A stretch of 64,000 bases of DNA, from the IMG/VR virus record IMGVR_UViG_3300025254_000001; one strand, written 5' to 3'. The notes under the pieces are model-generated. The model was given only the letters and a program-made list of their open reading frames with translations. It ran no database searches and was not told the DNA's origin. Made by a program: the position numbers and the translations under genes. Positions 4,127-63,997 of the stretch are shown here, piece by piece (the stretch's first letter is position 1; each line of letters opens with the position of its first letter). This DNA comes from a virus.

Positions 4127-4145
4127 TCGCCTGACGAGCCCCACG

Positions 4146-4188
4146 AGGCCGGCGCGTAGCTCAGGGGCGCGCCGGCCCTTCCTTTTTC
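4146..4188 (+). terminator. Intrinsic terminator after the capsid gene
   Basis: 10-bp GC stem GGCCGGCGCG/CGCGCCGGCC with an 11-nt loop, then CTTCCTTTTTCT. Confidence 0.6.
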
Positions 4189-4203
4189 TGGAGGCCCTCT
4201 TTC

Positions 4204-4623
4204 ATGATGAACAGCTACCAGACTCGACGCCTCATTGCGCTGCGCAACCTTCGCCACGAGGGCCAGAACGCGGCGCCTGGCGACGAGGTCTTCGCGACCC
4301 CCGTCGACGCCGAATACCTCGTGCGCATGGGAGATGCTCGCCATGCAACGGGCGAGCACATCGCTGCCAAGGCGCCCGCGCCCGCCGCCCAGGCGCCCGC
4401 CGCGCCCGCCCGCCGGCGTGGCCGCCCGACCAACGCCGAGCTTGCGGCGCGCGCAGCATCTGCGCCCGCGCCGGCGAGCGAGCCCGCCGCCGATCCCATC
4501 GAGATCGCGGCAGCGGACCCGGACCCGGCGCCCGCCGGCCATGCCGACACGGACATGACGACGGACAACACGAGTGCCCTGGTGCGCGCGTCTGACGTCG
4601 CCGACAGCGCATCGGGGGACTAG
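4204..4623 (+). CDS. Hypothetical Ala/Pro-rich protein with AT-hook-like RRRGRPT motif
   Basis: 139-aa ORF between the capsid and portal genes. Its stop abuts the portal GTG start. Confidence 0.5.
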   Translation: MMNSYQTRRLIALRNLRHEGQNAAPGDEVFATPVDAEYLVRMGDARHATGEHIAAKAPAPAAQAPAAPARRRGRPTNAELAARAASAPAPASEPAADPIEIAAADPDPAPAGHADTDMTTDNTSALVRASDVADSASGD

Positions 4624-6234
4624 GTGCGACTCCTCGGCTTCGACATCAGCCTGCGCCGAAAGAGCGCGGCCCCGGCCGGCCTGGTGCCGCTGGGCTCCGC
4701 GGTCTGGGGCTGGCTCCGAGAGCCGTTCGCGGGTGCCTGGCAGCGCAGCGTGCAGCAGGACGGGCATGAGGCGCTGCTGGCGTTCGCCGCGGTCTTCGCG
4801 TGCGTCTCGCGCATCGCCTCGGACATCGCCAAGCTGCGCGTGCGCCTCGTCCAGCAGGACGGCGCCATCTGGGATGAAGTCACCGCGCAGTCGCCATTCT
4901 GGGGACCACTGCGCAAGCCCAATAGCTACCAGACGCGAATCCAGTTCCTGACGTCGTGGGTGATCTCGAAGCTGCTCTACGGAAACACCTTCGTGCTCAA
5001 GGTGCGCAACGACGCGCGAGGCCTGGTCACCGAGATGCACGTGCTGCATCCGCGCCTGGTCACGCCGCTGGTGGCCGAGGATGGCTCGGTCTACTACCGC
5101 CTGGGCGCCGACATGCTCGCGGAGAAGCCACTCGGCGACACGGTGCCGGCCAGCGAGATCATTCACGACCGCGGCATGACGCTGTTCCACCCGCTGGTGG
5201 GGGTCTCGCCGATCTACGCCTGCGGCGCCGCGGCCACGCAGGGCAACCGCATCCAGAGCAACAGCGCGCGGTTCTTCGAGAACATGAGCCGGCCGTCCGG
5301 CATGCTGACCGCGCCGGCCAGCATCACCGACGAGACGGCTGCGCGCCTGAAGCGCGAATGGGAAGAGAACTTCTCGGCCCAGAACATCGGACGCGTCGCG
5401 GTGCTCGGCGATGGGCTCAAGTACGAGACCATGACCATCGACGCGGTCGACGCGCAGCTGATCGAGCAGCTGCGGTGGACCGGCGAGGACGTCGCGCGCG
5501 CGTTCGGCGTGCCCGGCTACAAGATCGGCGTGGGCCCCATGCCCCTGAACAACAACGTCGAGGCGCTGGAGCAGCAGTATTACACCGGCACCCTGCAGAC
5601 CCTCATCGAGAGCATCGAGGTGCTGCTCGATGAGGGCCTGGAAATGCCCACCGGCATGGGCAGCGAGTTCGATCTCGATGGCCTGCTGCGCATGGACACC
5701 GCCACCATGTACGACTCGCTCGGCAAGGTGGTGGGCGCCGGGATCATGGCGCCCAACGAGGCGCGCGCGCGCGTGAACCTGGCCGGCGTGGCCGGCGGCG
5801 ATACGCCGTACATGCAGCAGCAGAATTGGTCGCTCGCGCAGCTCGATCGCCGCGACATCGTGGCCGACAAGCCGGGCGTCGCCTCGCCGCCGGCGCCGGC
5901 GCCCATGCCCGCCGGCACGCCGGCCGCCGCGCCGCCGCCGCCCGAGCCGAGCAAGGCGCTGGTCGAGAGCGTCGAAAAGACCGTCTCGCAGCTCGGTGAG
6001 CTGACGCAATCTGTCCAGGCTTCGGCCGACCGCTCGGCGCTCGCCGAGGCCTCGGTCAAGTCGATGCTGGAGTCCGCGCTCGCGGACATTCCCGCGGCCG
6101 TCAAGTCGGCCGTGGCCGAGCGCGCGGCCGAATTCGCAGGCCAGCGTGACGAAGACGAGGACGACGGCACCTCGGAGCTTTGCAAGCGCGGCCTGCATGC
6201 GGGCTTCAAGGAGATGCTTTATGCGCCCCGCTGA
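4624..6234 (+). CDS. Portal protein (HK97 family-like)
   Basis: 536 aa with portal-like motifs (LLYGNTFVLK, VSPIYACG, ARFFENMSRPSGML, EDVARAFGVPGYKIG). GTG start immediately after the upstream stop. Confidence 0.85.
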   Translation: MRLLGFDISLRRKSAAPAGLVPLGSAVWGWLREPFAGAWQRSVQQDGHEALLAFAAVFACVSRIASDIAKLRVRLVQQDGAIWDEVTAQSPFWGPLRKPNSYQTRIQFLTSWVISKLLYGNTFVLKVRNDARGLVTEMHVLHPRLVTPLVAEDGSVYYRLGADMLAEKPLGDTVPASEIIHDRGMTLFHPLVGVSPIYACGAAATQGNRIQSNSARFFENMSRPSGMLTAPASITDETAARLKREWEENFSAQNIGRVAVLGDGLKYETMTIDAVDAQLIEQLRWTGEDVARAFGVPGYKIGVGPMPLNNNVEALEQQYYTGTLQTLIESIEVLLDEGLEMPTGMGSEFDLDGLLRMDTATMYDSLGKVVGAGIMAPNEARARVNLAGVAGGDTPYMQQQNWSLAQLDRRDIVADKPGVASPPAPAPMPAGTPAAAPPPPEPSKALVESVEKTVSQLGELTQSVQASADRSALAEASVKSMLESALADIPAAVKSAVAERAAEFAGQRDEDEDDGTSELCKRGLHAGFKEMLYAPR

Positions 6235-7438
6235 CATTGCCGACCTGCTGAAGGCGCTCGCGATCGACGTGCGCGACTTCGTCGGGTCGTCCAGCGACGT
6301 GCTCGCCAAGCGCATCGACGCCTTGGACCAGCGGCTCGGCGAGCTGCCGGCGCCGATGGATTCCGACGCCGTCGCCAAGCTGGTGGACGCCCAGGTCACC
6401 CGCGCCCTCGGCGACTTCGTCGTGCAGGGCCTGGAGCAGGTCATCGAGCGCCTTGCCGCGGTCGAGGCGCGCGCGCCGGTTGACGGCCAGAAGGGAGACA
6501 AGGGCGATCCGGGTGAGCCGGGCGCCGCCGGCGCCGATGGCCAGGACGGACGCGATGCCGACCCCGCGGTGATCGTCGAAGAGGTCCAGCGCGCGGTCGC
6601 GGCGCTGCCCAAGCCCGCGGACGGCAAGGATGCCGACGCTGATGAGATCGCCGGGCGCGTGCTCGCCGAGGTGGTCAAGCAGATCCCGGAGCCGGTCGAC
6701 GGCAAGGATGGCCGCGACGGCGTGGACGGCAAGGATGGCGTGAGCGTCGACCTGGCCGAGATCCAGCGCATGGTGGACGCCGCGGTCGCCGCGCGCCTGG
6801 CCGAAGCGCTGGCCGCGCTGCCGGTGCCCAGGAATGGCCTGGACGGCAAGGACGGGCGCGACGGCAAGGACGGCCGTGATGGGCTCGATGGCGCCGATGG
6901 ACGCGATGCGCTGCAGCTGGAGGTGCTCGACGCGCTCGACGTCGAAAAGCGCTACCCGCGTGGCACCTTCGCGTCCTGGCGCGGCGGCCTCATCCGTTCG
7001 TTCCGGGCGACCGATCCGCTCAAGGACGCGCCCGAGCTGGAAAAGGCCGGCTGGGCGGTCGTCCTCGACGGCTTCGCCGGCCTCGACTCGACCGAGGGGA
7101 GTGACATGCGGAATTTCGGGCTGTGCTTCATCCGCACGACGGGCAAGGAGCAGACGCTGTCGTTCTTCTCGGCGGCGATGATCTGGCGCGGCATCTGGAC
7201 GGCCGAGCGCGACTACGAGCGCGGCGACGCGGTCACCTACGACGGCAGCATCTGGCACTGCGAGCGCCCCACCAGGTCGCGGCCGGGCACGCCGGCGAGC
7301 GCTGACGACTGGAAGCTCAGCGCCAAGCGGGGCCGCGATGGCAAGGACGGCCTCAAGGGCGAGAAGGGCGACCGTGGCGCCGAAGGCCGGCCTGGTCGCG
7401 ACCTCACGCAGCTCGGGTTCGACGGCAAGAAGACATGA
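6221..7438 (+). CDS. Collagen-like (Gly-X-Y) repeat protein with C-terminal CBM5/12-like motif
   Basis: Several GXY runs (GDKGDPGEPGAAGADGQDGRD; GKDGRDGVDGKDG; GLDGKDGRDGKDGRDGLDGADGRD; GRDGKDGLKGEKGDRGAEGRPGRD). Also a GDAVTYDGSIWHC...DDWKL motif. Strong SD AAGGAG 7 nt upstream of ATG 6221. Confidence 0.75.
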   Translation: MRPADIADLLKALAIDVRDFVGSSSDVLAKRIDALDQRLGELPAPMDSDAVAKLVDAQVTRALGDFVVQGLEQVIERLAAVEARAPVDGQKGDKGDPGEPGAAGADGQDGRDADPAVIVEEVQRAVAALPKPADGKDADADEIAGRVLAEVVKQIPEPVDGKDGRDGVDGKDGVSVDLAEIQRMVDAAVAARLAEALAALPVPRNGLDGKDGRDGKDGRDGLDGADGRDALQLEVLDALDVEKRYPRGTFASWRGGLIRSFRATDPLKDAPELEKAGWAVVLDGFAGLDSTEGSDMRNFGLCFIRTTGKEQTLSFFSAAMIWRGIWTAERDYERGDAVTYDGSIWHCERPTRSRPGTPASADDWKLSAKRGRDGKDGLKGEKGDRGAEGRPGRDLTQLGFDGKKT

Positions 7439-12804: not shown

Positions 12805-12907
12805 CACAGTAGTTCGCCGGCGCGCGTCGTGCAATTAATTGAAATCTTGAGCGGAGAGACTTGACAATGGCCGGAATTCGTTGGCGGTTTGCGCGAGTGG
12901 GGTCGGC

Positions 12908-43570: not shown

Positions 43571-43594
43571 CGCCCGGTAAAGCCGGGCGTTTTT
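43571..43594 (+). terminator. Hairpin plus T-run after the tRNA-His fragment
   Basis: CGCCCGG-TAAAG-CCGGGCG followed by TTTTT. It would terminate the reconstituted tRNA gene after integration. Confidence 0.5.
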
Positions 43595-44805
43595 CATGGT
43601 CTGGGGAATTCCTGGGGAATTTTCGGGTCGGCGCCCGCTGCCTGGGCTGCCTGGGCCGCGCCCAGCGTGCGTTCGAGCTTGGCCATCTCGACCTGGTCGC
43701 CCGCGCCAGGAATCCACTTGGCGTAGGTGCTGAGAAACACCTCGACGCTGTGGCCCATCTGGCCGGCGCAGAACGCCGGGGTCATGCCCGCCATCAGCAT
43801 CATCGTCGCGTAGGTGTGGCGGGTGTTGTAGGGCTCGCGGTAGCGGATGCCCAGGCGCTTGAGGGTCGGCTTCCAGAACGACCGGCCGTAGGGGCGCACG
43901 CCCTCCCAACGCACGCCGTAGCGCGGATCGTGGAACACGTGCCCGCCGGCCAGGGAGGTGTGGGCCCGCTGGCGCGTCAGCGCGGCCAGCGCTCGGCTGT
44001 TGAGGTGCAGCCGGCGCGCCGTGTCGGTCTTGGTCCGGTCGACCTCCTCGCCCTGGACGACGCCTTCGACGATCGAGACGTAGCCTGAGCGCAGGTCGAC
44101 GTTGGGCCAGCGCAGGCCGAACGCCTCGCTGGTGCGCAGGCCCATGTAGAACTTCGCCTCGGTGAAGTTGACCACCTGGGCGTCGTAGTGCGCGGCCATG
44201 TCGGCGATGATCAGATCCGCCTCGGCCTGCGTGAAGGGGTCGATCTCCGGCCGCTGCCACTTGGCGCGCGGGATGTTCTCGGCCGGGTTGTCCGTCAGCA
44301 GCTTGTCCAGCACCGCGAGCGCGAGCGCCTCGCGCAGCACGCTCACGTAGTTGTTGACGGTCTTGCCCGACAGGCGGCGCTTGGTGGCCAGGGCGAGCAA
44401 GAGGTCGCTGGTCTTGAGGCTGCGCAGCGCTCGCTCGCCGAGCGGCATCTTGGCGCCTTCGGGCTGGGCGTTCGACCAGAACGTGACGGCCGACTTGTAG
44501 CTGTTGTGTGTACTGGTGGCGATGCGCTGGGCGGCCAGCCAATTCTTCAGCTGGGTAGAGAGGGTGGTCTGCGCGGCGCCGGCGCCGCTGGCCGGGAAGA
44601 ATTCGGCCATGCTGAACCGGTCGTGCGCGATGGCATCGCGAATGTCGTCGGCCAGGCGCGCCGCGTACTTGATGTTGGCTGGCGTGGGCGCCATCGGCGC
44701 GCCGTCGACCATCAGCGTGCGCTTGATGGGCGTGCCGTCGAGGATGAATGTCAACCGGAGCGAGTTCTCGCGAATCTCGACGCCCTTGGTCTTGGCCTTG
44801 GTCAT
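43594..44805 (-). CDS. int: Tyrosine integrase
   Basis: 403 aa. RHTYATMMLMAG and LSTYAKWI catalytic-region motifs, with an N-terminal arm-binding-type domain. Confidence 0.9.
   Translation of the reverse strand: MTKAKTKGVEIRENSLRLTFILDGTPIKRTLMVDGAPMAPTPANIKYAARLADDIRDAIAHDRFSMAEFFPASGAGAAQTTLSTQLKNWLAAQRIATSTHNSYKSAVTFWSNAQPEGAKMPLGERALRSLKTSDLLLALATKRRLSGKTVNNYVSVLREALALAVLDKLLTDNPAENIPRAKWQRPEIDPFTQAEADLIIADMAAHYDAQVVNFTEAKFYMGLRTSEAFGLRWPNVDLRSGYVSIVEGVVQGEEVDRTKTDTARRLHLNSRALAALTRQRAHTSLAGGHVFHDPRYGVRWEGVRPYGRSFWKPTLKRLGIRYREPYNTRHTYATMMLMAGMTPAFCAGQMGHSVEVFLSTYAKWIPGAGDQVEMAKLERTLGAAQAAQAAGADPKIPQEFPRP
43601..43622 (+). repeat. Arm-type integrase-binding candidates (P' arm): CTGGGGAATTC, CTGGGGAATTT
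   Basis: Tandem 11-mers related to the P-arm repeats and in the same orientation. They lie within the int 3' end. Confidence 0.5.
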
Positions 44806-50857: not shown

Positions 50858-50920
50858 TTTTTGCCGTACTCCCGTTTGATTTTTGACAGCGCGATGAATC
50901 GGGCTGATGGATCAAACGTA

Positions 50921-50932
50921 GCAACGGATTGC
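50921..50932. promoter_or_regulatory. Operator-like site GCAACGGATTGC (near-palindrome)
   Basis: Shares the AACGGATT core with sites at 51427 and 51510 (inverted). Lies upstream of the leftward operon. Confidence 0.45.
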
Positions 50933-51041
50933 GCGCCGTCAAGCAAATTTTTGCCTGAAGGGGCATTCGGAAACGGCCATTTGCGCGTTGGTGTAGACGC
51001 GCGAGCGCGCGGGAAAACCCGCGCTGGGAGAGCGCCGGGGA

Positions 51042-51386
51042 CTAGGCGTCCAGGTCGTCTATCTCGGTCTGCTCGCGGTCTAGGAACGCGCGTTCCACCG
51101 CCTTGTGGAACCGCATGCGGGCCACGCTGTCATGCAGCAGCTCCCAGGGTTCGACCTCTAAGGCGACCGCCAGCTTGTGCAGGTTGGACAGCGTCCCAGA
51201 GGGACAGCTCATGCTCGTGCCGCTGTGGGTGACGCGGTTCGAGGGCCGCAGGAAGTTGCCCACCGTTCGAGGCGAGACGCCGCTGGCGCGAGCGAGCGCG
51301 CTCTCGGACATTGACTGCGCGCGCATCTGGCACTCCAGGTTCGCGGCGATGGATCGAAGGAATTGCGAGACGTTTCGATTGGTCAT
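51042..51386 (-). CDS. CI-like repressor (XRE-family HTH)
   Basis: 114 aa from ATG 51386. MSESALARASGVSPRTVGNFL helix-turn-helix. Divergent from the rightward operon. Confidence 0.65.
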   Translation of the reverse strand: MTNRNVSQFLRSIAANLECQMRAQSMSESALARASGVSPRTVGNFLRPSNRVTHSGTSMSCPSGTLSNLHKLAVALEVEPWELLHDSVARMRFHKAVERAFLDREQTEIDDLDA

Positions 51387-51426
51387 GACGCGTGCCCTCA
51401 AGGGTCCCCCATTCTTAGGGGGTCTA

Positions 51427-51438
51427 GTAACGGATTCC
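51427..51438. promoter_or_regulatory. Operator-like site GTAACGGATTCC
   Basis: Lies in the divergent promoter region. A related TCTAGGGATTCC is at 51484-51495. Confidence 0.4.
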
Positions 51439-51497
51439 CATACCCCCCATTTTGTACGCAGAACCATGACGACGCCAGGGAGTTCTAGGGATTCCTC

Positions 51498-51525
51498 TTG
51501 ACGCGCGGTAATCCGTTGCTACGTT
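51498..51525 (+). promoter_or_regulatory. Rightward early promoter candidate (TTGACG, 16-nt spacer, TACGTT)
   Basis: The spacer contains the inverted operator core AATCCGTTGC (51510-51519). Confidence 0.45.
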
Positions 51526-51533
51526 GCAGAGGG

Positions 51534-55958: not shown

Positions 55959-56043
55959 TCGAGCAGCCGGTCGAGTCGTAATTCCCAGCCCGGCGCTTGA
56001 CACGCAGGACCGCGCCGAATTACATTTTCGCCCGAGGCCACCA

Positions 56044-56078
56044 GCCGCGACCACGTCCGACGTGAACGCGGCTTTTTT
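56044..56078 (+). terminator. Intrinsic terminator ending the early-right operon
   Basis: Long imperfect hairpin GCCGCGACCACGTC-C-GACGTGAACGCGGC followed by TTTTTT. Confidence 0.65.
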
Positions 56079-56096
56079 GTGCCCAATTAACCCGTG

Positions 56097-56117
56097 ATTC
56101 GTGGCACAGAAAACGAG
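56097..56117 (-). promoter_or_regulatory. Degenerate copy of the island promoter motif (ATTCGTGGCACAGAAAACGAG)
   Basis: Together with the following ~30 nt it aligns with 56964-57012. The -10 equivalent is weak (ACGAAT). Confidence 0.3.
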
Positions 56118-56171
56118 CCTGCGGGATTAATTTCACCTATGACGCAGCGCCTGGCCGGCCATGCGGGAATT

Positions 56172-56348
56172 GCCCAAAAATGCGGCATTGCCCAATTAAG
56201 TGGCAGGGCATTCCTAAGCTGTTGATTTGGTGGAAGAAAACCCCCTCGACAGCGCTCTTATCGCAAGGGTGGCAAGGGGTTAGTAGGGCCGATCCCGAAA
56301 ATCGCGGTACGCAGGGTTTACGCCCCGATGCGAGGAAGTGTCGATTTT
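56172..56348 (+). repeat. AT-rich non-coding element, copy B (paralog of 12606-12804)
   Basis: Aligns with copy A over about 180 nt. It lies between the + terminator (56044-56078) and the - terminator (56393-56421). Confidence 0.7.
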
Positions 56349-56392
56349 CTATGGGCTGGGCCGTCGTTGCGTTGTCGGCTCGCCGGCAGCTC

Positions 56393-56421
56393 GGCGAAAA
56401 GGAAACCCGCCGCAGCGGGTT
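56393..56421 (-). terminator. Intrinsic terminator (minus strand)
   Basis: AACCCGC-CGCA-GCGGGTT hairpin. The minus strand continues TCCTTTTCG. Confidence 0.55.
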
Positions 56422-56436
56422 GTGCCTGATGGCCTG

Positions 56437-56592
56437 TCAGACCCTCTTGAAAATCCCGGTGCTCTTGACGATGAGCTTCATCTGGTAGCGCAGGGTGGTG
56501 ACTGCCTTGACGTTGCCGATCAGCGGTGCGACTGCGGCGCGGTAGTTGGCGATCTCTTCGGGCGTAGCCGGGCGGGTCGTGCGGGTGGTCAT
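56437..56592 (-). CDS. Small hypothetical protein (51 aa; below the ORF-track length cut-off)
   Basis: My translation: MTTRTTRPATPEEIANYRAAVAPLIGNVKAVTTLRYQMKLIVKSTGIFKRV. SD GAAGGAG upstream. Confidence 0.5.
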   Translation of the reverse strand: MTTRTTRPATPEEIANYRAAVAPLIGNVKAVTTLRYQMKLIVKSTGIFKRV

Positions 56593-56673
56593 TGCGTGGG
56601 CTCCTTCACAGCCAAAGGGAACTGCTCCCCGTGGCTCGACCCCGCCGCAACGGGGTGAAGTGAGCTGGATGGC

Positions 56674-56937
56674 CTATCGTGGGACGTCGCGGGTGACGAC
56701 CCGGTGCTTGCCCAAGCCGGTGTCGATCACCGACTCGAACCTGCACTCAGCCACGCGGGTGCCGGCGGGCGTGTAGCGGTTGATGATCTTGAGCAGGCGG
56801 CACTCAACGATCTGGCCGGCTACGAACTCGTTCTTGGTGAGCCAGACCTTGAACCGAAGGCCGATCGCGCCCTTGGCCATCGGCTCGGCTCGTGCGGCCA
56901 GCTTCGCGTTCTGCTCGTCCTGGGTCATCGCGTACAT
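56674..56937 (-). CDS. Hypothetical protein
   Basis: 87 aa. SD AAGGAGAG. Island promoter motif about 27 nt upstream. Confidence 0.55.
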   Translation of the reverse strand: MYAMTQDEQNAKLAARAEPMAKGAIGLRFKVWLTKNEFVAGQIVECRLLKIINRYTPAGTRVAECRFESVIDTGLGKHRVVTRDVPR

Positions 56938-56963
56938 GCTGCTCTCCTTGCTGCTGATGCTTT

Positions 56964-56985
56964 ATTGTGGCACAGGAAAAGAGCC
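56964..56985 (-). promoter_or_regulatory. Island promoter motif copy (minus strand CTTTTCCTGTGCCACAAT)
   Basis: TGn-extended -10-like CACAAT upstream of gene 56674-56937. Confidence 0.5.
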
Positions 56986-57568
56986 TGCGGCGCTAAATGC
57001 ACCTATGGGCGGACTGCAGCCATCCCAGTTCCTTGATCGGTGCTGGTGGATCGAGGCTCTAGAGGGCCGGACGCGTTTAGAAGCCCGTAGCCGAACTCGA
57101 ATCGGTGGCTGTGGGTAAGGGTTGGGAGGTCGACGATCGCCGTCTACGCGCCCGATACGCGCGTTGGTTTGGCGCCATAGACCGACCTGCCTGGCCTGCT
57201 GGCCGACCTGCACGCCGCGCCCGCCAGCCCACTCGCTCCGGTCCGGTCGCCCAGCCCAGCCCGTCCAGCTCGGCGTCGCCTATCGCTGCTGCTGCACCAT
57301 CTGTGGCCTGGCCATCGCCGCTGCCCGCCCATCCACCCTGCCTATCGGTGGGGGGCCTGCCGCACACCCTGGTCATCCCCACGCTAGAGCGGCGTCGAGG
57401 TGTTGCGCACGTGGCCGAGGGTTGGCGAGGGGGTGGTTTGCAATTGCCCCAGCAAGGCCCATAGGTGGTCCTGCAGTGGGGTCGGTGAGGCGGGCAGGTA
57501 GTCCAGGGGTTGCCTGGGCCTGCCGAGGTCCCGCAGGGCCCATCCCGGGCCTCGGCGGGGCATTGACG

Positions 57569-57775
57569 TCAGAGCCGCTTGGCCTTCTTGTCGATCAGCT
57601 CGCGCAGCCAGTCGGCACCGCCGAGCTGCTCGAACGCCTCGCGTTGCGCGCGGTTGCAGCGCACCCGGATCATGTCGTCCCGGTCGCTGGACTTCGAGCC
57701 CTTGGGCCGGCCGATCTTCTTCGGCTCGGCGGCCGGCTCTGCCTCCGGCTTGGCCTTCTTCGGTTCGGCGATCAT
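57569..57775 (-). CDS. Small basic DNA-binding protein (RHH-like), paralog of 44802-45011
   Basis: 68 aa from ATG 57775 with SD GAAGGAG. KKIGRPKGSK, then IRVRCNRAQREAFEQLGGADWLRELIDKKAK. Confidence 0.55.
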   Translation of the reverse strand: MIAEPKKAKPEAEPAAEPKKIGRPKGSKSSDRDDMIRVRCNRAQREAFEQLGGADWLRELIDKKAKRL

Positions 57776-57824
57776 GGCGCGCGCTCCTTCTGCTGTTGCG
57801 CCTGTGGATGCAGGCTCGATAGAT

Positions 57825-57844
57825 AACTGTAGCACAAGATAAAC
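57825..57844 (-). promoter_or_regulatory. Island promoter motif copy (minus strand TCTTGTGCTACAGTT)
   Basis: TGCTACAGT extended -10-like sequence upstream of the RHH-like gene. Confidence 0.45.
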
Positions 57845-57876
57845 AGACCGATTTCCGCGGGCTAAGCATTGATGCG

Positions 57877-58320
57877 ATGCACGGGGTCCTCCCCGAGAGT
57901 CCTGCTCGTTGCAGGAAGCCCGCTCCACTCCTTCGTCCGATGCCCTGGTCCGCGCCCACCGTCTGCTGTCGGGCTGGTTGCCGAGAGCTGGTCAAGGTGC
58001 CCGGCTACTGCGACGCGCACCGGGCCGAGAACTACCGCGAGTACAACGCCAAGCGCGCTGGCCGCAACCTGCAGACCGACAGGTGGTATCACACGGCGCG
58101 CTGGCAGCGCCTGCGCAAATCGGTCCTGGACGCCGAGCCGCTGTGCCGCATGTGCACCGCTGCTGGCCGGGTGACGCTGGCCGTGCTGGTCGACCACATC
58201 AAGCCGGTCAAGTTCGAGGGCGAGTTCTGGGACCGTGGCAACCTCCAGCCGCTGTGCAACCACTGCCACGAGATCAAGAGCCAGGCCGAGGGATCGCGGT
58301 CGCGGCCGGTTGCGCGTTGA
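57877..58320 (+). CDS. HNH endonuclease
   Basis: CRAGC...YCDAH and LVDHIKPV...NLQPLCNHCHEIK motifs. Start uncertain (ATG 57877 or 57940). Confidence 0.75.
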   Translation: MHGVLPESPARCRKPAPLLRPMPWSAPTVCCRAGCRELVKVPGYCDAHRAENYREYNAKRAGRNLQTDRWYHTARWQRLRKSVLDAEPLCRMCTAAGRVTLAVLVDHIKPVKFEGEFWDRGNLQPLCNHCHEIKSQAEGSRSRPVAR

Positions 58321-58627
58321 GCAGGTCGTCCTGCGCCACCGTGGCCTGGGCGATGGCCTGCGCCGCGATGTCGTCGAACGTTTGCCATGCCAGCGGCATG
58401 ACGTCGAAATGCTGCTGGTAGGCCGCGCGGATCTGCTCCAGCGCCTTCAGCAGTCCCGGAGCGCCGGCCGCCAGCGCGAGGTTCGCGCGCTGCTTGGCCA
58501 CGAGCTGCTCGCCGTTGTGGCGGATGGCCATGAGCCAGCGGCCGTCAGGCGTGAGCAGCACGTACTCGTTCGCGTCACCCTGCTCGCGCACGAGCCATGG
58601 GCCATCCGTGTGGGTGATGGTGGTCAT
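58274..58627 (-). CDS. Hypothetical protein
   Basis: 117 aa. Its 3' end overlaps the HNH 3' end convergently by 47 nt. Confidence 0.5.
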   Translation of the reverse strand: MTTITHTDGPWLVREQGDANEYVLLTPDGRWLMAIRHNGEQLVAKQRANLALAAGAPGLLKALEQIRAAYQQHFDVMPLAWQTFDDIAAQAIAQATVAQDDLLNAQPAATAIPRPGS

Positions 58628-58887
58628 TCGTCGTTCTCCTGCGGCTGGGCGCCGGCGGCCATCGCAGCGGCGCGCGTCACACTGAACTGCGCGAGCGAGT
58701 CGCCTTCGTTGCCGATGGGGTAGGCGTTGACCGTCAGGTCGCCGGCCTGGCTGACATCGATTCGCAGCGCGAAGGCTCCGACGTTCACCCAGCCCGCGCG
58801 CTCGTGCTCGACGCTCTCGCCGTCGAGCCGGCCGTCCAGGCGCACGATGTCGCAGTCTTCGACCTCGAAGGTTCCGTTGGTGCTCAT
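58624..58887 (-). CDS. Hypothetical protein
   Basis: 87 aa. ATGA overlap with the upstream stop. Confidence 0.5.
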   Translation of the reverse strand: MSTNGTFEVEDCDIVRLDGRLDGESVEHERAGWVNVGAFALRIDVSQAGDLTVNAYPIGNEGDSLAQFSVTRAAAMAAGAQPQENDE

Positions 58888-59297
58888 GATGCGTCGCTCC
58901 TGTCGATGGGCGCGAACAGCTGGCGCATCATTTCCATGGCCTGGTCGTAGGCCCGATGGAGCTGCACGGGATCGACGCCGGCGCGCACACCGAGGCCATG
59001 CCAGCCCCGGTCGTGCACGTAGTCGCGCAGCGCCGTGATGCCTTCGGGGCAGAAGTGCGATTGGCCGATCGCCTGGATGGCGCGCGTGACGATGTCGAGC
59101 GGGCCGGCCGAGGCGGGCGCGGCGTCGGGCGTGAGATAGCTCTCGTACTCGTACTCGCCGTCGCCGACCTTGTGGCTCTCGTCGCCGTCTTCGCACTCCT
59201 CCTCGGCCAGCTTCATCGCCTGGTCGTCGGTGTCGCAGCCTCCGATCTCGTAGTGGCGTGTGATCTTCTCGACCACGGTGACGCGGTAGCGGCTCAT
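58884..59297 (-). CDS. Hypothetical acidic protein
   Basis: 137 aa. ATGA overlap with the upstream stop. Confidence 0.5.
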   Translation of the reverse strand: MSRYRVTVVEKITRHYEIGGCDTDDQAMKLAEEECEDGDESHKVGDGEYEYESYLTPDAAPASAGPLDIVTRAIQAIGQSHFCPEGITALRDYVHDRGWHGLGVRAGVDPVQLHRAYDQAMEMMRQLFAPIDRSDAS

Positions 59298-59653
59298 GAT
59301 GGGCTCCTCGGTTGGGTGGTGGGCTTGTCGGTCCAAGCCGCGAACAGCCTTGGGCCGTACACCCGGCTGTTGCGCGTGATGCGAAGGCAGGCGTGCCAGG
59401 TCTGGAAGGAGCTGTAGTCGCCCCACCAGTTCGGATGATCGTCTAGGCGCTGGAAGGCGTCGCCGAGCGTGCTGCGCTGCAGCTCTGTCCTGCGCGGCAT
59501 CGACTCGAACAGCGACACCACGGACGCCGCGATGTCGGCTGGCGAGGTGTTGACGTCGACGACGCGGGCGACCTCCTTGAGGCCGTCGACCAGCTGCCTG
59601 CAGAGCTTGTCGAGCGCGCGCCCGCGCAGCTCGTCGGTGCGATAGCGGCTCAC
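59294..59653 (-). CDS. Hypothetical protein
   Basis: 119 aa from GTG 59653, with a GTGA overlap with the DUF488 gene stop. Confidence 0.45.
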   Translation of the reverse strand: MSRYRTDELRGRALDKLCRQLVDGLKEVARVVDVNTSPADIAASVVSLFESMPRRTELQRSTLGDAFQRLDDHPNWWGDYSSFQTWHACLRITRNSRVYGPRLFAAWTDKPTTQPRSPS

Positions 59654-60033
59654 AGCAGCACTCCCTGCCGGGACTCCGGCCTGGCGATCTCGAACTCCGG
59701 CACCTCGATGTGCAGCTCGCGCTCGAACCACGCCGCGACCAGGCGGCGATGGCACCAGTTCGTCTCGGTGAACGGCGGCTTCTCGTAGCACAGCAGCACC
59801 GGCTCGGCGCCGGCGGCCAGCTCCATCAGCTTGTCGTGCACGACCTTCGGATCGAGCAGCGCCAGCTGTTCGGCGTACAGGCGCTCGTACTCCGGGCGCG
59901 TGACGCTGTTGAACCACGCCCCCGGCGCCAGCGGCTTGAAGATGCGAAAGCCTGCCGGCGTCGAGCGCGGCGGGAAACGCGAGATCGACACGCGACCCGG
60001 GCCGGTGTAGGTGAAGAACGAAGCGGTTTTCAT
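59650..60033 (-). CDS. DUF488-family protein
   Basis: 127 aa. GRVSISRFPPR...LAPGAWF...VLLCYEKP...WCHRRLVAAWF pattern. SD AAAGGA. Confidence 0.6.
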   Translation of the reverse strand: MKTASFFTYTGPGRVSISRFPPRSTPAGFRIFKPLAPGAWFNSVTRPEYERLYAEQLALLDPKVVHDKLMELAAGAEPVLLCYEKPPFTETNWCHRRLVAAWFERELHIEVPEFEIARPESRQGVLL

Positions 60034-60064
60034 GGGGACGGTCCTTTCGTTGCCTGGTAATTGA

Positions 60065-60081
60065 TTGTAGCACAGAAAAGT
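60065..60081 (-). promoter_or_regulatory. Island promoter motif copy (minus strand CTTTTCTGTGCTACAAT)
   Basis: TGCTACAAT extended -10, with TTGCCA 18 nt upstream as a -35. About 32 nt upstream of ATG 60033. Confidence 0.55.
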
Positions 60082-60202
60082 AGATGATGGCAAGGGATCA
60101 GGGGCTTGTGAGACACTTCTCGCACCTGGCTGGACCCCTTCACGGTCTGGCTGGGTAGAAGCCCCGGTACCGTTGGCGCGGAACCGGGGCTTCGTCCTTT
60201 GA

Positions 60203-60940
60203 TCACGCGTTGGCCGTCACCAGCACCGTGTACACCCCGGTGCCGGAGGACTTGAAGGCGCCCTCGGGCAGGGCCTCGATGGTCCCGCCGCGGCGCTCGA
60301 TCTCCGCGCGGAACTCGGTGGTGAGGCGGTCGCTGCGGAACGTGACGCCGGCCGACATCACGGCCACCAGGCGACCGCCCGGCTTCAGGAAGCGCAGGGC
60401 GTGGAGCACGTGCTTGACGTCCTGGCGGTTGCTGAACGGCGGGTTCATGACGATCCGGTCGTACACCGGGCGCGGATCGCAGCTCATGAAGTCTGTCTCC
60501 TGCACGTCGTCGAGCCAGCCCAGCGAGCGCAGGTGCGCCGCGTTGGCCGGCATCTTCTCGATCGCGTCCAGGAACGCGATCCCCTTGAACGGCTGCACCA
60601 GCTTGCCGCGCCCGGCGCTGGGTTCGAGCACGCGCATGCCGCCGCCCACGTCGGCCGCCTCGCACACCCGGTCGACGACAGCCGGCGGCGTCTCGAAAAA
60701 CTCGAACTCGTCCTTCGGCACCACGACGCTGCCGGTCAGGATGATCTGCTCCATGCGCTCGGCGGCGTCGCCCTCGAAGACGTGAGCCTTCGCGCGGCTA
60801 TTCCATCGGCCGCCGGCGGCCATCAGCACCTTGTTCACGCGCACGTACAGGTGCCGATCGAGCTGCTGCTCGATCACCAGGTGCGGGCCGTTCATGCGCG
60901 CGCTGCTCAGCGCGGCCAGGACGTTCGTTTCGATTTCCAT
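60203..60940 (-). CDS. DNA N6-adenine methyltransferase-like protein (NPPF motif)
   Basis: 245 aa. VLEPSAGRGKL (SAM motif I) and IVMNPPFS (motif IV). SD AGGAGAG. Confidence 0.7.
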   Translation of the reverse strand: MEIETNVLAALSSARMNGPHLVIEQQLDRHLYVRVNKVLMAAGGRWNSRAKAHVFEGDAAERMEQIILTGSVVVPKDEFEFFETPPAVVDRVCEAADVGGGMRVLEPSAGRGKLVQPFKGIAFLDAIEKMPANAAHLRSLGWLDDVQETDFMSCDPRPVYDRIVMNPPFSNRQDVKHVLHALRFLKPGGRLVAVMSAGVTFRSDRLTTEFRAEIERRGGTIEALPEGAFKSSGTGVYTVLVTANA

Positions 60941-60963
60941 TTCGCTCTCCTACTTCGTTCGGG

Positions 60964-60999
60964 CACAAAAAAGCCCGCGGCTGGTCGTTCACCGCGGGC
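60964..60999 (-). terminator. Intrinsic terminator (minus strand) after the DUF932 gene
   Basis: GCCCGCGG...CCGCGGGC hairpin. The minus strand continues TTTTTTGTG. Confidence 0.6.
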
Positions 61000-61016
61000 G
61001 CTGGTTGTGGTGGGTA

Positions 61017-62039
61017 TCAGCTGACCGTCGAGGCCAGCAGCTTCAGGGCCTTGTTCTTCATCGCCTCGCCGTCGCCGAACCAGGCGGACGACAGGCGCGT
61101 GTCGTCGCCGCCGCGCGTGTGGTCGACATACTCGGTGACGGCGTTGAGCAGGCCGAACGCCGTGCCCTTGGCTTCGGGCAGATCTGAGCCGATCGCGCCG
61201 CCGTCGAACAGCGCCATGATCGACTTGAACGCGCGCGTCTCTTCCACTGACTTGGGCGGCTTGACGACCTGGCCGGGCTTGGCGTCCTTGGGCGGCGTGG
61301 GCAGCGGCAGCAGCGCCTTCAGGAAGGCCGCGCAGAACGTCTCGTTGACCTGCTGGCGCGCGAGCCGACGCGTGGTGGCGAGGAAGCGCTCCCACTGGTC
61401 GAAGACGATGCCCAGATCCAGGCGCACGTCCTCCGCATTGAACTTCGCGTTGTGCGGCACCTTGATGACGCTGCCGACCTCGTCGTGCTCTGAGGCGCCT
61501 TGCGCCCCGTAGCCCGCGGCCATGGTCAGCGTGTTGTGGCAGACCACGCGCACGCTGGTGAACTTGGCCGTCGTGCTCAGGCTGGCGTCGTAGCTGGTGG
61601 CCAGCAGCACGTAGGGCCGGATCTTGTCCGTTTCGAGCAGACACTCACCGTCGTTGACGCGGGCGAGCGCCCAGATGCGCTTGCCGCCATCGAGCGCGCC
61701 GGCCGTCTCCAGCTCGAACCCGTTGTGCTTGATCAGCTCGGCGAAGAAGCCGAGGACTTCGGCCGGCTGGACCACCTGATACCACTTGGACACGATGCCC
61801 AGCGGCGCGTGCGTGTCGCTGCGATAAAGGACGTCGCGCTCTGGGTAGACGATGACCCCGCCGTCCGGCTTCATGTATTGCACGGCCGTGCGCTGGACGC
61901 TATGGCTCAGGCCCGCCTCGATGGCCCAGGTTTCGATGGGCGCGCCGGGCGTGAGCGCCTTGCCCATCTTGTGCCAGGGCGTCTCGCCGACGTAGGCGAT
62001 GGCGGCGCGGCCGGTGGTTGTGTCGATCATGTGTGCCAT
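61017..62039 (-). CDS. DUF932-family (phage/plasmid-like) protein
   Basis: 340 aa. The start MAHMIDTTTGRAAIAYVGETPWHKMG is typical of DUF932/TIGR03299. Confidence 0.7.
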   Translation of the reverse strand: MAHMIDTTTGRAAIAYVGETPWHKMGKALTPGAPIETWAIEAGLSHSVQRTAVQYMKPDGGVIVYPERDVLYRSDTHAPLGIVSKWYQVVQPAEVLGFFAELIKHNGFELETAGALDGGKRIWALARVNDGECLLETDKIRPYVLLATSYDASLSTTAKFTSVRVVCHNTLTMAAGYGAQGASEHDEVGSVIKVPHNAKFNAEDVRLDLGIVFDQWERFLATTRRLARQQVNETFCAAFLKALLPLPTPPKDAKPGQVVKPPKSVEETRAFKSIMALFDGGAIGSDLPEAKGTAFGLLNAVTEYVDHTRGGDDTRLSSAWFGDGEAMKNKALKLLASTVS

Positions 62040-62050
62040 GGTTTCACTCC

Positions 62051-62302
62051 TTACAGTGCTGTGATGGCGAGCCGTTGGCGCGGCTCGTCAGGGATGGCCG
62101 CGGTTGCGGTCGGTTGGGTACTGGGTGAGGTAAGCGCTTCGAGCCAGTCGCGCACGAAGCACTCACCGCGAACGCCGTGCTCGCGCACGTAGCGCACGCG
62201 CTTCTGCGTGATGTTCATGGACGCGGACAGGCCTCGAATCGTCTTGCCGTTCACGCGCATCAAGCGCTTGACCTGCGGGCCTGTGAGAGTCGTCTTGTCC
62301 AT
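62051..62302 (-). CDS. Small HTH protein, probably translated from a leaderless mRNA
   Basis: 83 aa. IRGLSASMNITQKRVRYVRE helix-turn-helix. The ATG lies 6 nt downstream of the TACAAT -10. Confidence 0.55.
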   Translation of the reverse strand: MDKTTLTGPQVKRLMRVNGKTIRGLSASMNITQKRVRYVREHGVRGECFVRDWLEALTSPSTQPTATAAIPDEPRQRLAITAL

Positions 62303-62307
62303 GTCTT

Positions 62308-62325
62308 AATTGTAGCACAGAAAAG
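62308..62325 (-). promoter_or_regulatory. Island promoter motif copy (minus strand CTTTTCTGTGCTACAATT)
   Basis: Identical 17-mer to the copy at 60065-60081. Confidence 0.55.
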
Positions 62326-62449
62326 CCATGGCGGACTATGGCGCGTGAAGGAATTTTCGATGTCCCACTGCTGCTGTCGCTGCTGCTGCCAGTGCTCTCT
62401 CGCCGAAATCTCGGCACTCCTTGCAACCCTTGTTCAAAAGGTAACCACC

Positions 62450-62704
62450 ATGTCCAACACCATTGACGATCTCGTCACCGCAGTCGCGGCCCAAACCGGC
62501 GAGGTCGCCAGCCTGACGGCGTTCATCGCAGGCCTCGAACAGCAGCTGAAGGACGCGCTGGCGAACGTGACGCTGTCGCCCGAAACCCAGGCCAAGGTCG
62601 ACGCGGTCTTCGCGGGCGTGACGGCCAATTCGCAGGCCATCTCGGACGCCATCGCTTCGAACCCTGGCGCCCCGACGCCGCCCGCTCCCGCGCCGGCGCC
62701 CTAG
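62450..62704 (+). CDS. Hypothetical coiled-coil protein with Pro/Ala tail (lone + strand gene in the island)
   Basis: 84 aa. Third-position GC is high from ATG 62450 onward. Divergent from the 62308 promoter. Confidence 0.45.
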   Translation: MSNTIDDLVTAVAAQTGEVASLTAFIAGLEQQLKDALANVTLSPETQAKVDAVFAGVTANSQAISDAIASNPGAPTPPAPAPAP

Positions 62705-63108
62705 TCGATTTCCCAGGCGCCGTCACGCGCGGTCGTCGGCAGCCGCGACGCGGCTTCCTTGATCGCGTTGACGATCGCCTGGGCCAGCGAGTCGGTGTAG
62801 CTGTCGGCCTCGCACGCCTGATAGGCGTAGCAGCTGCAGCCGTTCACGATCGTGCCCGGCGACGGCAGCTCGGTCACCAGCTCGAAGATCCAGGGGCTGC
62901 TGGTCGAATCGGCGTCCGCGCTCTCGCGACCGTAGCGCGCGGCGATGGCCTCGACGTTGGCCTCGTAGAGGATCTCGCCAGCGATTTCGCAGACGATCGG
63001 GTCGTCGAGCGCGAAGCGCTTGCCGTTGTGCGCGGCGATGATGCCGTTCGCGTGGCCCCAGGACACCAGGGTGCTGATGTGGTGGGAGCTGCAGAGGAAC
63101 GCGCTCAT
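62701..63108 (-). CDS. Hypothetical protein
   Basis: 135 aa. Convergent 4-nt overlap with 62450-62704. Confidence 0.5.
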   Translation of the reverse strand: MSAFLCSSHHISTLVSWGHANGIIAAHNGKRFALDDPIVCEIAGEILYEANVEAIAARYGRESADADSTSSPWIFELVTELPSPGTIVNGCSCYAYQACEADSYTDSLAQAIVNAIKEAASRLPTTARDGAWEID

Positions 63109-63335
63109 GATTGGCTCCTCGGGATCAGGTTCATGGCTTCGGCGTAGGCCACCGCGCAGGGCAGCCAGTCGTCGTCGCTGGGGCGCGGGACGCGAGGCGT
63201 GGGCAGAAAACCGTCTTCGACGGCTGTCGTCACGTCGTCATCCCACAGCTCGAAGATCGTCGGTTGCGCGGCGCTGCCCAGGCTGATGTACTGGCGGTCG
63301 CGCTCGAACCACGTGACGCAGCTGAAATCGGTCAT
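63105..63335 (-). CDS. Hypothetical acidic protein
   Basis: 76 aa from ATG 63335 with SD GGGAGAA. Confidence 0.5.
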   Translation of the reverse strand: MTDFSCVTWFERDRQYISLGSAAQPTIFELWDDDVTTAVEDGFLPTPRVPRPSDDDWLPCAVAYAEAMNLIPRSQS

Positions 63336-63349
63336 GGTGGTTCTCCCGT

Positions 63350-63997
63350 TCAGGCGGCGGCGAGGAGGGCGCTTGCACCCTTCCACTCCGCTTCCAGCCC
63401 GTAGTTCTTCGCGCAGGTCGGGCCGAAGCCCACTGCCGTGCTGTGCTCGTCGGTCAGCTTGGTGTTGCAGAAGCAGCAGCGCCCGGTCAGCGCGCCGTGC
63501 TTCTTGGCCACGCCGGCCGGGTCCTTCGAGAACTCCTGCAGCAGCCGGCGAACGGCGCGCACGTCTTCCTCGGTGATCGAGCGGCTCTGCGTCCAGTTGC
63601 CCGCGGCGTCGACCCGGCCGAACCACACGTTGCTGCCGTAGCTGCCGCCGTCCGTCACCTGCACCTGGCCCTCGTGCTTGCTGCGCGGGCCCGCCAGCGA
63701 GAGGTGCACTGGTTGGTGGTCGATCTGGAGAACGATCTTCGGATAGCGCAGCTTCTGCTTGGCGCGCTGGAACAGCGCCATTACGCCGTTGAAGTCGCCC
63801 ACCGTTTCTGTGGCGGGCTGGTCCGCCGCGGGGTTGGTGGCTCGCTGGGTGAGCTTGTCGACCCACAGCCACTGCTTGTCCGACAGGGAGCGGCGGCGCG
63901 AGAAGGACGTGATGAGGTCGACGGCGAACGCCTGGTCGCCGCCGCTCAGGCGGGGAAGGGCATCCGTCAAGGATGCGACGCGGGTGCTTTCGTTCAT
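63350..63997 (-). CDS. Protein with C-terminal DUF6011-like zinc motif
   Basis: 215 aa. GRCCFCNTKLTDEHSTAVGFGPTCAKNYGL motif. The start is 3 nt from the window edge. Confidence 0.55.
   Translation of the reverse strand: MNESTRVASLTDALPRLSGGDQAFAVDLITSFSRRRSLSDKQWLWVDKLTQRATNPAADQPATETVGDFNGVMALFQRAKQKLRYPKIVLQIDHQPVHLSLAGPRSKHEGQVQVTDGGSYGSNVWFGRVDAAGNWTQSRSITEEDVRAVRRLLQEFSKDPAGVAKKHGALTGRCCFCNTKLTDEHSTAVGFGPTCAKNYGLEAEWKGASALLAAA

Follow-up and report, generated by a model that had tools for sequence, protein, structure and literature searches.

Near the end of a 64,000-nt stretch of viral DNA (IMG/VR record IMGVR_UViG_3300025254_000001; termed here the window), positions 56437-63997 hold a 7.6-kb island of mostly leftward genes in which one short motif recurs. 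The interpretation favoured here, with reasonable though far from complete confidence, is that the island consists of five leftward moron-like cassettes, each headed by the same promoter core, that these cores have a probable shared operator, and that the cargo is swappable and of the DNA-modification or anti-restriction type. In silico, the motif is well supported as the core of a -35-independent, extended -10 promoter of the sigma-70 type; a 9-mer within it is probably also the site of a dimeric regulator, as judged from patterns of occurrence in sister phages. These relatives were collected via their DUF932 homologues, and the percentages given with their handles (L018, L019 and so on) are DUF932 identities.

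A repeated promoter-like core at the cassette heads

An earlier note on this DNA had reported four good minus-strand copies of the motif and a degenerate one at 56097. All four good copies are present, at coordinates that were right to within 1 nt: core B (CTTTTCTGTGCTACAAT, 62309-62325), which heads a gene for a helix-turn-helix (HTH) protein; core C (60064-60080), which heads a DUF488 cassette and is, as had been claimed for the copies placed at 60065 and 62308, the identical 17-mer; core D (TTATCTTGTGCTACAGT, 57826-57842), which heads a gene for a 68-aa ribbon-helix-helix (RHH)-like protein and is conserved in L018; and core E (TTTTCCTGTGCCACAAT, 56964-56980), which has three mismatches relative to CTTTTCTGTGCTACAAT and contains a 9-mer, TGTGCCACA, that is a perfect palindrome. 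Each is intergenic and lies 6-50 nt upstream of a minus-strand start codon. The 17-mer of core B finds 3 matches at up to 3 mismatches where 0.04 are expected (none of 100 shuffles reached 3); the core TGTGCYACRRT finds 4 matches in 64 kb where 0.10 are expected (0 of 100 shuffles yielded as many), each of them a minus-strand site (56964, 57826, 60064 and 62309).

The list of copies needs one addition and one qualification. Near-identical metagenome contigs reveal a fifth good copy (ATTTACTGTGCTACAAT) a little beyond the end of the window, at about 64077-64093 and 79 nt upstream of the DUF6011 start codon; it would thereby supply a promoter, at the needed position, to a first cassette that would otherwise be headless. 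The degenerate copy (termed here copy F; TGTGCCAC-G-AAT, 56097-56113, minus strand) does exist and has a 1-nt insertion. It shares with copy E (56964) a common 41-nt repeat of 83% identity, and the homology between the window and L018 breaks inside it; at this place L018 keeps the copy whole, and behind it come some 400 nt of G-rich DNA with no counterpart in the window. Copy F is, as these alignments indicate, a truncated relic of a promoter copy, cut by a deletion.

The element was defined by aligning, at the -10 hexamer, 14 independent copies drawn from the window and from three sister lineages. No variation occurs at positions -16 to -14, -11 to -9, -7 and -5, and very little at -13, -8 and -4; -20 and -21 are T in nearly every copy, -12 can be T or C, and A or T predominates at -6. 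The aligned block reads G-T-G-C-Y-A-C-A-A-T-W-A-A, within a consensus TTnCT-GTGC-YACAAT-WAAg that spans -22 to -3, and carries 1.2-2.6 bits per position in the core versus roughly 0.1-0.5 bit per position in the flanks. The -10 hexamer itself is YACAAT (TACAGT in one copy), with A-11 and T-7 in 14 of 14; the extended -10 is represented by invariant T-15 and G-14, and TRTG occupies -17 to -14. A conserved -35 is absent, the only -35-like hexamer being that of copy C (TTGCCA, 18-nt spacer), unlike the early promoter and the PR'-like promoter of the same phage, both of which have a -35. In copy B, where the -10 TACAAT lies at 62314-62309 and the extended -10 TG at 62317-62316, the ATG of the HTH gene follows 7 nt after the -10 (TACAAT-taagac-ATG) and there is no Shine-Dalgarno sequence; this arrangement is kept in L018, and the ATG stands at the same distance in L019. 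The HTH messenger would, on this prediction, be leaderless and start at the A of the ATG at 62302. The earlier proposal of a minus-strand, TGn-extended -10 promoter is thus well supported in silico by the common orientation, the position at cassette heads, the TGn and YACAAT elements, the leaderless ATG, and the retention of the core in three sisters.

Copies E and F share a further upstream block, CATAGGTG(A/C)AWT, at about -50 to -39, which also accompanies two extra L018 copies; it may serve as an UP-like element or as an activator site that makes up for the C at -12. The CATAGGTG block marks a CACAAT subclass, located at 56101-56141 and 56967-57007 in the window and at the L018 copies 15301, 16225 and 17222.

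Three other ideas about the element were tried and set aside. A sigma-54 promoter was taken to be a coincidence: one upstream L019 site fits TGGCAC-N5-CTGC and the other two, read by eye, do not. The T-tract of the motif might form the end of an upstream terminator; copy B, with a weak 5-bp stem, and one L018 copy are the only cases that fit, so the idea is not general. Finally, the promoters might be methylation-sensitive and read by the island methylase; the L005 methylase is 63% identical with the differences spread along it, and nothing ties its target to the motif, which leaves this idea a speculation.

Retention and replacement of the core in sister phages

Core copies number seven in L018 (94%), seven in L019 (77%) and six in L051 (76%), all on the sense strand at cassette heads and none on the other strand. 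The window differs from L019 and L051 in its untranslated regions and gene content, and from L018 in the content of parts of cassettes C and E; in each comparison the core is retained. L004 and L005 (about 80%) have no such cores; every cassette head there carries ATATyCGGGA-TATAAT-AA, in seven copies. Upstream of DUF6011, for example, the window has TACAATaaagtc versus TATAATaaagtc in L004, with a canonical TATAAT at the orthologous position. A third flavour, which includes a -35 (CCTTGCWW-N16-TAAAGTTWA, three copies), is found in L053 (71%). That the flavours at the cassette heads are uniform within a lineage and swapped between lineages implies that these sites are promoters.

Cassette content differs among the window, L018, L019, L051, L004/L005 and L053; the stretch from the DAM-like/GNAT gene up to and including the small terminase subunit gene is conserved. 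The order DUF6011-DUF932-methylase is kept in the window, L018, L019 and L051, and DUF6011-DUF932 also in L004/L005 and L053, where the next gene is a methylase homologue (L005) or encodes 264 aa (L053). Because a homologue of the window's 51-aa protein sits in the first cassette of L051, cassettes appear to change places between lineages. About one quarter of the breakpoints between the window and L018 lie at the motif (exactly inside copy F), and three others do not lie at motifs. In equivalent slots, the sister islands encode DarA_C (7e-10), ArdC-N (27 bits, above the Pfam cut-off), RadC, ParB, and a C5-methylase with DUF4942.

An operator-like palindrome and its candidate regulators

From -17 to -9 the core forms a 9-mer, TGTG-N-YACA, which is a perfect palindrome where -12 is C. 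L019 and L051 together contain five stand-alone 9-mers, without the AAT of a -10, upstream of cores: four at 21 bp and one at 32 bp, which correspond to two or three helical turns. On a conservative count, 4 of 6 non-core 9-mers fall within the 1.6% of sequence that lies at most 40 bp upstream of cores (binomial P = 1e-6). In addition, positions not needed by sigma-70 (C-13, C-10, A-5, A-4 and T-20/-21) are invariant or nearly so. The stand-alone 9-mers suggest that the 9-mer is functional in its own right, most simply as a binding site from which a dimeric regulator would block the -10. A shared operator or dedicated recognition element, as had been proposed from the window, thus draws its support from the relatives (the stand-alone 9-mers of L019 and L051) and not from the window, where no further TGTG-N-YACA occurs on either strand of the 64 kb beyond the four cores.

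The 83-aa HTH protein is modelled confidently as an XRE/Cro-type fold over residues 1-60, in agreement with its earlier label. Its gene comes directly after a promoter copy in the window and in L018, L019 and L051; in L004 one gene stands between. Structural neighbours of the model in the PDB include the restriction-modification controllers C.Kpn2I and C.Esp1396I as well as Stl, SinR and Aca1, with non-significant E-values, and a sequence search of the PDB gave no match. Nine base pairs make a short palindrome for an HTH dimer; the basic 68-aa protein of cassette D, whose RHH-like label stands as a sequence pattern and is without a family match, would suit a short palindrome. Regular-expression and tblastn searches for RHH homologues in L019 and L051 found none; a weak RHH look-alike in L004 was seen by eye only.

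A proposed course of expression

On the interpretation of the island as a row of moron-like cassettes, each cassette would be an independent transcription unit closed by a hairpin or terminator, and host RNA polymerase would fire the five island promoters without phage activators. Because they lack the putative CI operators described below, these promoters may work as soon as the phage infects, in the lysogen, or in both situations. Their level would be set, or their activity repressed, by a regulator that recognises the 9-mer, and by virtue of the shared 9-mer the five promoters would form one small regulon. Q-modified transcription from a PR'-like promoter would run some 10 kb head-on through the cassettes to the HNH, DAM-like/GNAT and terminase genes, and would silence the island by collision and antisense RNA.

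Gene content of the cassettes

Sixteen island proteins were considered; the G+C content of the island (0.61-0.69 versus 0.68 for the genome) is not atypical. Cassette A (62701-63997, minus strand) encodes a DUF6011 zinc protein (63350-63997) and proteins of 76 aa (63105-63335) and 135 aa (62701-63108). Cassette B (60203-62302, minus strand) encodes the XRE-type HTH protein (62051-62302), DUF932 (61017-62039) and, after a terminator, an orphan NPPF N6-adenine methyltransferase (60203-60940). Cassette C (58274-60033, minus strand) begins with a DUF488-like gene (59650-60033), followed by genes for 119, 137, 87 and 117 aa; the last three of these are replaced or absent in sister phages, and the 117-aa protein matches PHROG 1273 and is assigned Phage_P22_Y8K6 (Pfam) in the precomputed annotation of the identical contig L001. 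Cassette D (57569-57775, minus strand) consists of the gene for the 68-aa RHH-like protein, and cassette E (56437-56937, minus strand) of genes for 87 aa (56674-56937) and 51 aa (56437-56592). The island is thus mainly, as first described, a block of minus-strand genes; it is not purely leftward, since two genes lie on the plus strand: an HNH endonuclease of the packaging-associated type (57877 or 57940 to 58320), convergent with cassette C, and a small gene (62450-62704) that encodes 84 aa, or 114 aa if read from 62360, and converges with cassette A. The possible start of the latter at 62360 has a good Shine-Dalgarno sequence, and 62360-62449 would add a cysteine-rich N-terminus (MSHCCCRCCCQC).

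Most of the labels originally given to these proteins hold. Family matches bear out DUF6011 (8.5e-13) and DUF932 (5.4e-55); the NPPF motif is present in the methyltransferase, which matches Pfam weakly and PHROG methylase domains strongly, including those of giant phage proteins. DUF488 falls below the Pfam cut-offs and is upheld by PHROG 2450 (2.6e-16). No restriction partner was found for the methyltransferase, the sole PADLOC matches among the ten island proteins scanned being to methylase models. The AlphaFold model of DUF932 (pLDDT 88.8, pTM 0.81) has no structural analogue in the PDB (best TM below 0.2), where a sequence search likewise gave no match, and its neighbours in a viral structure library are only other DUF932 proteins. 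The literature on DUF932, DUF6011 and DUF488 was uninformative as to function. Five of the 16 island proteins are acidic (pI 4.0-5.1).

Stretches that contain no convincing open reading frame and are G-rich on the island sense strand, 400-580 nt long, lie at 56990-57569 in the window, at about 17240-17620 in L018 and at about 5650-6010 in L005. They recur in related islands, one of them directly behind a promoter copy, and are C-rich on the strand of the late transcript; a non-coding RNA and a Rho-loading site for rightward transcription are possibilities. A tandem-repeat finder run on the G-rich gap returned nothing meaningful.

Terminators and hairpins

Predicted promoters head all five units, and predicted terminators or hairpins follow the DUF932, methylase and 51-aa genes; these cassette-closing structures fold better than shuffled controls. 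In the gap between the DUF932 and methyltransferase genes, an intrinsic terminator (60965-61000, minus strand) has a 9-bp G+C stem followed by UUUUUU (z = -2.75). Because this terminator lies upstream of the methyltransferase gene, which has no promoter copy of its own, the methyltransferase is presumably expressed by read-through. After the methyltransferase gene comes a long hairpin with a CGCCAA loop (60158-60193, minus strand; 15-bp stem with one mismatch, z = -3.75), and another intrinsic terminator (56404-56421, minus strand; z = -2.27) ends cassette E. Hairpins at 56406-56422 and 56641-56657 (minus strand), after the 51-aa and 87-aa genes, are copies of each other (CCCGCCGCARCGGG) and form a third small hairpin family.

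A second CGCCAA-loop hairpin (62068-62087, minus strand) overlaps the 3' tail of the HTH reading frame and lies 14 nt upstream of the DUF932 Shine-Dalgarno sequence, CTGTAAGGAGT. Hairpins of this family, with an invariant hexaloop closed by G-C, also occur at 7988-8007 in L001 and in L018, L019, L004, L005 and L053, and hence in lineages of all three promoter flavours. They are always on the sense strand, and nearly all copies lie 10-29 nt upstream of the conserved CTGTAAGGAGT, which has decayed to a relic in the post-methylase copies of the window and L018; the same module, the 60158-60193 hairpin followed by the relic Shine-Dalgarno sequence, precedes a RadC cassette in L019, L005 and L051. 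The stems show compensatory changes: 85.7% of cells are paired versus 73% in shuffles (0 of 500 as high), and there are 11 double-change cells (reached in 0 of 500 shuffles). The hairpin could be a protein-binding, processing or stabilising RNA element. An Rfam search over 55.5-64 kb at E up to 1 gave no match, the CGCCAA hairpin included.

Genome setting

The window (G+C 0.68) is, by gene content, the genome of a temperate lambdoid phage, siphovirus-like and with an HK97-type capsid/protease gene; an integrase, a CI-like repressor and RecET-like genes are its temperate traits. The genome map begins at the small terminase subunit gene, and a rightward virion block (17-31563) encodes the small and large terminase subunits, a fused HK97-type protease/capsid gene and tail genes; within this plus-strand block, the open reading frames that end at 12294 and start at 12881 are, unusually, separated by some 590 intergenic nt that include several A+T-rich patches. 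A leftward block (31.5-50.9 kb) includes a tyrosine integrase (43594-44805), RecT and a RecE-like exonuclease. The immunity region (about 51.0-51.5 kb) comprises a CI-like HTH gene (51045-51386, minus strand) and an early promoter with a normal -35 (TTGACG, 16-nt spacer, TACGTT, read by eye from the sequence). Repeated AACGGATT and AATCCGTT motifs that flank the CI-like gene (50900-51530) are taken to be putative CI operators; they are unlike the island 9-mer.

A rightward block (51.5-55.96 kb) follows, with an O-like replication gene, a RusA-like gene and a 'Q-like' gene; because Pfam, PHROG and PDB sequence searches with the Q-like protein gave no match, that label reflects position only. 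Directly after it stands the PR'-like promoter (55997-56026, plus strand; TTGACA-18-TACATT), from which the late transcript that must cross the island antisense probably starts. A strong plus-strand intrinsic terminator (within 55997-56083; z = -2.88 versus shuffles) follows, with a stem at about 56043-56073 (the fold read by eye) and a T run to about 56079; this layout of promoter and terminator resembles lambda PR'/tR' and is retained in L018. Beyond 64000, near-identical metagenome contigs show a 118-bp gap and then plus-strand genes for a DAM-like/GNAT protein, a 215-aa protein and the small terminase subunit. With this flanking gene order, the island is bounded by the presumed late promoter on one side and the packaging genes on the other, and is mostly antisense to the late transcript. 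In lambda, bor lies between Q and the terminase genes in the opposite orientation.

Between the terminator and the island, 56080-56440 is a conserved non-coding region with the direct repeats CCCAATTAA and ATTGCCCAA, each present twice; it could be a cos or terminase-binding region, deciding which DNA end enters the cell first. In L019, the large terminase subunit gene (3801-6398; 865 aa) contains LAGLIDADG/Hom_end domains and likely carries an intein or homing-endonuclease insertion. A tRNA scan of the window found none, and the island had no megablast counterpart in the phage and plasmid collections. The closest deposited phages are at most 50% identical in the large terminase subunit and at most 49% in DUF932; a scan of a genome collection with DUF932 found one distant match, at 40% identity, in a metagenome-assembled genome of Bacteriovoracales, which does not identify the phage host.

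Comparison with known systems

Morons have their own promoter and terminator, lie among late genes, often on the opposite strand, vary between relatives and provide accessory functions (PMC3594210). The island units resemble them in promoter and terminator, orientation and variability, and the slot between Q and terminase matches that of lambda bor; they differ in that five or six units stand in a row with one shared promoter core and a likely operator, and in that their G+C content is not atypical. In the hyperplastic regions of T4-type phages, PeSLs (promoter-early stem-loop cassettes), in which a repeated sigma-70-like promoter is combined with stem-loops, flank small non-essential open reading frames (PMC2839356, PMC4122927). 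The island likewise has a repeated promoter and stem-loops, content that is shuffled between relatives, and a deletion junction inside the repeat. It belongs, however, to a temperate siphovirus-like lambdoid phage rather than a T4-type myovirus; its promoter has no -35; the promoter (5-7 copies per genome) and the recurring CGCCAA hairpin are separate and do not form one composite unit; and only about a quarter of breakpoints map to the repeat.

The leading regions of conjugative plasmids were the comparison drawn in the earlier note. Orphan methylases and darA/ardA-type genes are enriched there (Samuel et al., PMC11541004), and Frpo leading-region islands (PMC11541004) are like this island in their clustering on one strand, orphan methyltransferase and repeated promoter, with DarA/ArdC-type, ParB and RadC genes in the sisters. 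Here, by contrast, the setting is a double-stranded DNA phage, the promoter is a short duplex -10 rather than a 200-300-nt single-strand hairpin, and for most genes of this island no function is known. Membership of the leading-region class did not hold: the motif is not of the Frpo type, the island is flanked by the Q-like and terminase genes and not by an oriT or relaxase. The DUF932 subfamily is rare in plasmids (70 of 72,556); the one plasmid neighbourhood of DUF932 that was inspected, that of pGRT1, is unlike a leading region. When single-strand DNA was folded for five 150-nt regions around copies, z ranged from -1.5 to +1.75 relative to shuffles and the motif was not in a long stem. As for the claimed anti-defence content, the orphan methyltransferase stands in the window, DarA_C, ArdC-N, RadC, ParB and the C5-methylase are found in sister islands only, and no other window gene could be linked to such a role. 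The leading-region resemblance is thus real for the island family and thin for this window, and an anti-defence label for the island is plausible but unproven.

Aca proteins and restriction-modification controllers are small XRE-type autoregulators whose operators overlie their own promoters. The island is alike in having a small XRE HTH gene beside accessory genes, a palindrome overlapping the promoter and a predicted leaderless HTH gene; it differs in that the fold likeness of its HTH protein is generic to XRE, with non-significant E-values, in that the 9-bp palindrome is short, in having no known Acr or restriction enzyme, and in that the operator would be shared by five or more promoters rather than one. 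The closest known kinds are morons and PeSL-type cassettes; the arrangement elaborates on these and involves no new principle.

Alternative explanations

Several points weigh against reading the island as promoter-headed cassettes with a common operator. Neither the window nor L018 has a second 9-mer, so that all the operator evidence comes from L019 and L051, where the stand-alone sites may be what promoter rearrangements left behind. Convincing co-variation with promoter flavour was seen for no regulator: a single residue (K to T) separates the HTH recognition helices of flavours 1 and 2, and the RHH-like gene is found by tblastn only in the window and L018. Duplication or gene conversion could by itself explain the uniformity within a genome. 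About one third of copies have C at -12, a poor match to the -10 consensus, and sigma-70 contacts do not account for the conservation of C-13 and C-10. The cores were judged against the sigma-70 consensus, and the promoter preferences of the host may differ. Both the promoter and the operator readings were drawn entirely from sequence. A bolder version of the favoured reading, possible but doubtful, is a fused promoter-operator regulon, in which a small regulator binds the 9-mer across the -10 of each cassette and times a swappable arsenal of DNA-modification and anti-restriction genes, placed antisense within the late-operon leader, and lineages have swapped flavour together with the regulator, as a phage counterpart of leading-region islands. 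In the opposite direction, the cores might be plain constitutive promoters of ordinary morons with no dedicated regulator, made uniform by duplication or gene conversion, as for T4 PeSLs (PMC2839356); the extra conserved positions would then reflect shared ancestry and the preferences of host RNA polymerase (contact at -22 to -18, TRTGn, discriminator). This is viable but rather unlikely, even though all conserved positions lie within -22 to -3, the three lineage-specific flavours all look workable as sigma-70 promoters, one deletion breakpoint falls exactly within a copy, cassette order is shuffled between lineages and no regulator tracks flavour. An RNA polymerase footprint on an extended -10 promoter covers -22 to -3. 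What such promoters leave unexplained are the stand-alone 9-mers, which lack a -10 and lie at helical-phase spacing upstream of cores, and the C/T toggling at -12, which trades -10 quality for palindrome quality; likewise, only about a quarter of the window/L018 breakpoints lie at the motif.

The cargo might also serve the prophage, in lysogenic conversion or superinfection defence, rather than early counter-defence, with cassette B as a controller-regulated modification or restriction-like module. This is conceivable, and a minority view here. The phage is temperate, the opposite-orientation slot between Q and terminase is the bor site of lambda, and the lack of AACGGATT/AATCCGTT putative CI operators at the island promoters is compatible with prophage expression without being proof of it; moreover, restriction-modification controllers are among the neighbours of the HTH model and the HTH gene is predicted to be leaderless, as C-protein genes are. 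Those fold-search E-values are, however, non-significant, the PADLOC matches are confined to methylase families, DUF932 has no nuclease-like structural neighbour, and the sister islands hold anti-restriction domains (DarA_C, ArdC-N) rather than defence genes. Least probable by far is that the motif is a single-strand promoter of the Frpo/ssi type or a recombination site comparable to integron attC. Its location at cassette boundaries and a loose theme in gene content (the orphan methylase; DarA_C, ParB and RadC in relatives; PMC11541004) point that way; against it, the motif stands 5' to the genes and has the look of a -10, the 150-nt regions fold no better than shuffles and folding rebuilds no -35, no relaxase or oriT was seen, and the one integrase detected belongs to the lysogeny module, at a distance of 12 kb.

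Significance

If the favoured interpretation of moron-like cassettes behind a shared promoter core is correct, the core would constitute a compact, recognisable 'expression socket' for accessory genes in uncultured high-G+C temperate phages, and any gene behind the motif or its lineage equivalent would become a candidate early or accessory gene. The sister islands place DarA_C, ArdC-N, RadC, ParB and three kinds of methylase in such sockets; the small acidic proteins and the DUF6011-DUF932-methylase trio would thereby become counter-restriction candidates. The three uniform promoter flavours, occurring in otherwise collinear islands, would further provide a test case for distinguishing gene conversion from co-evolution with a regulator.

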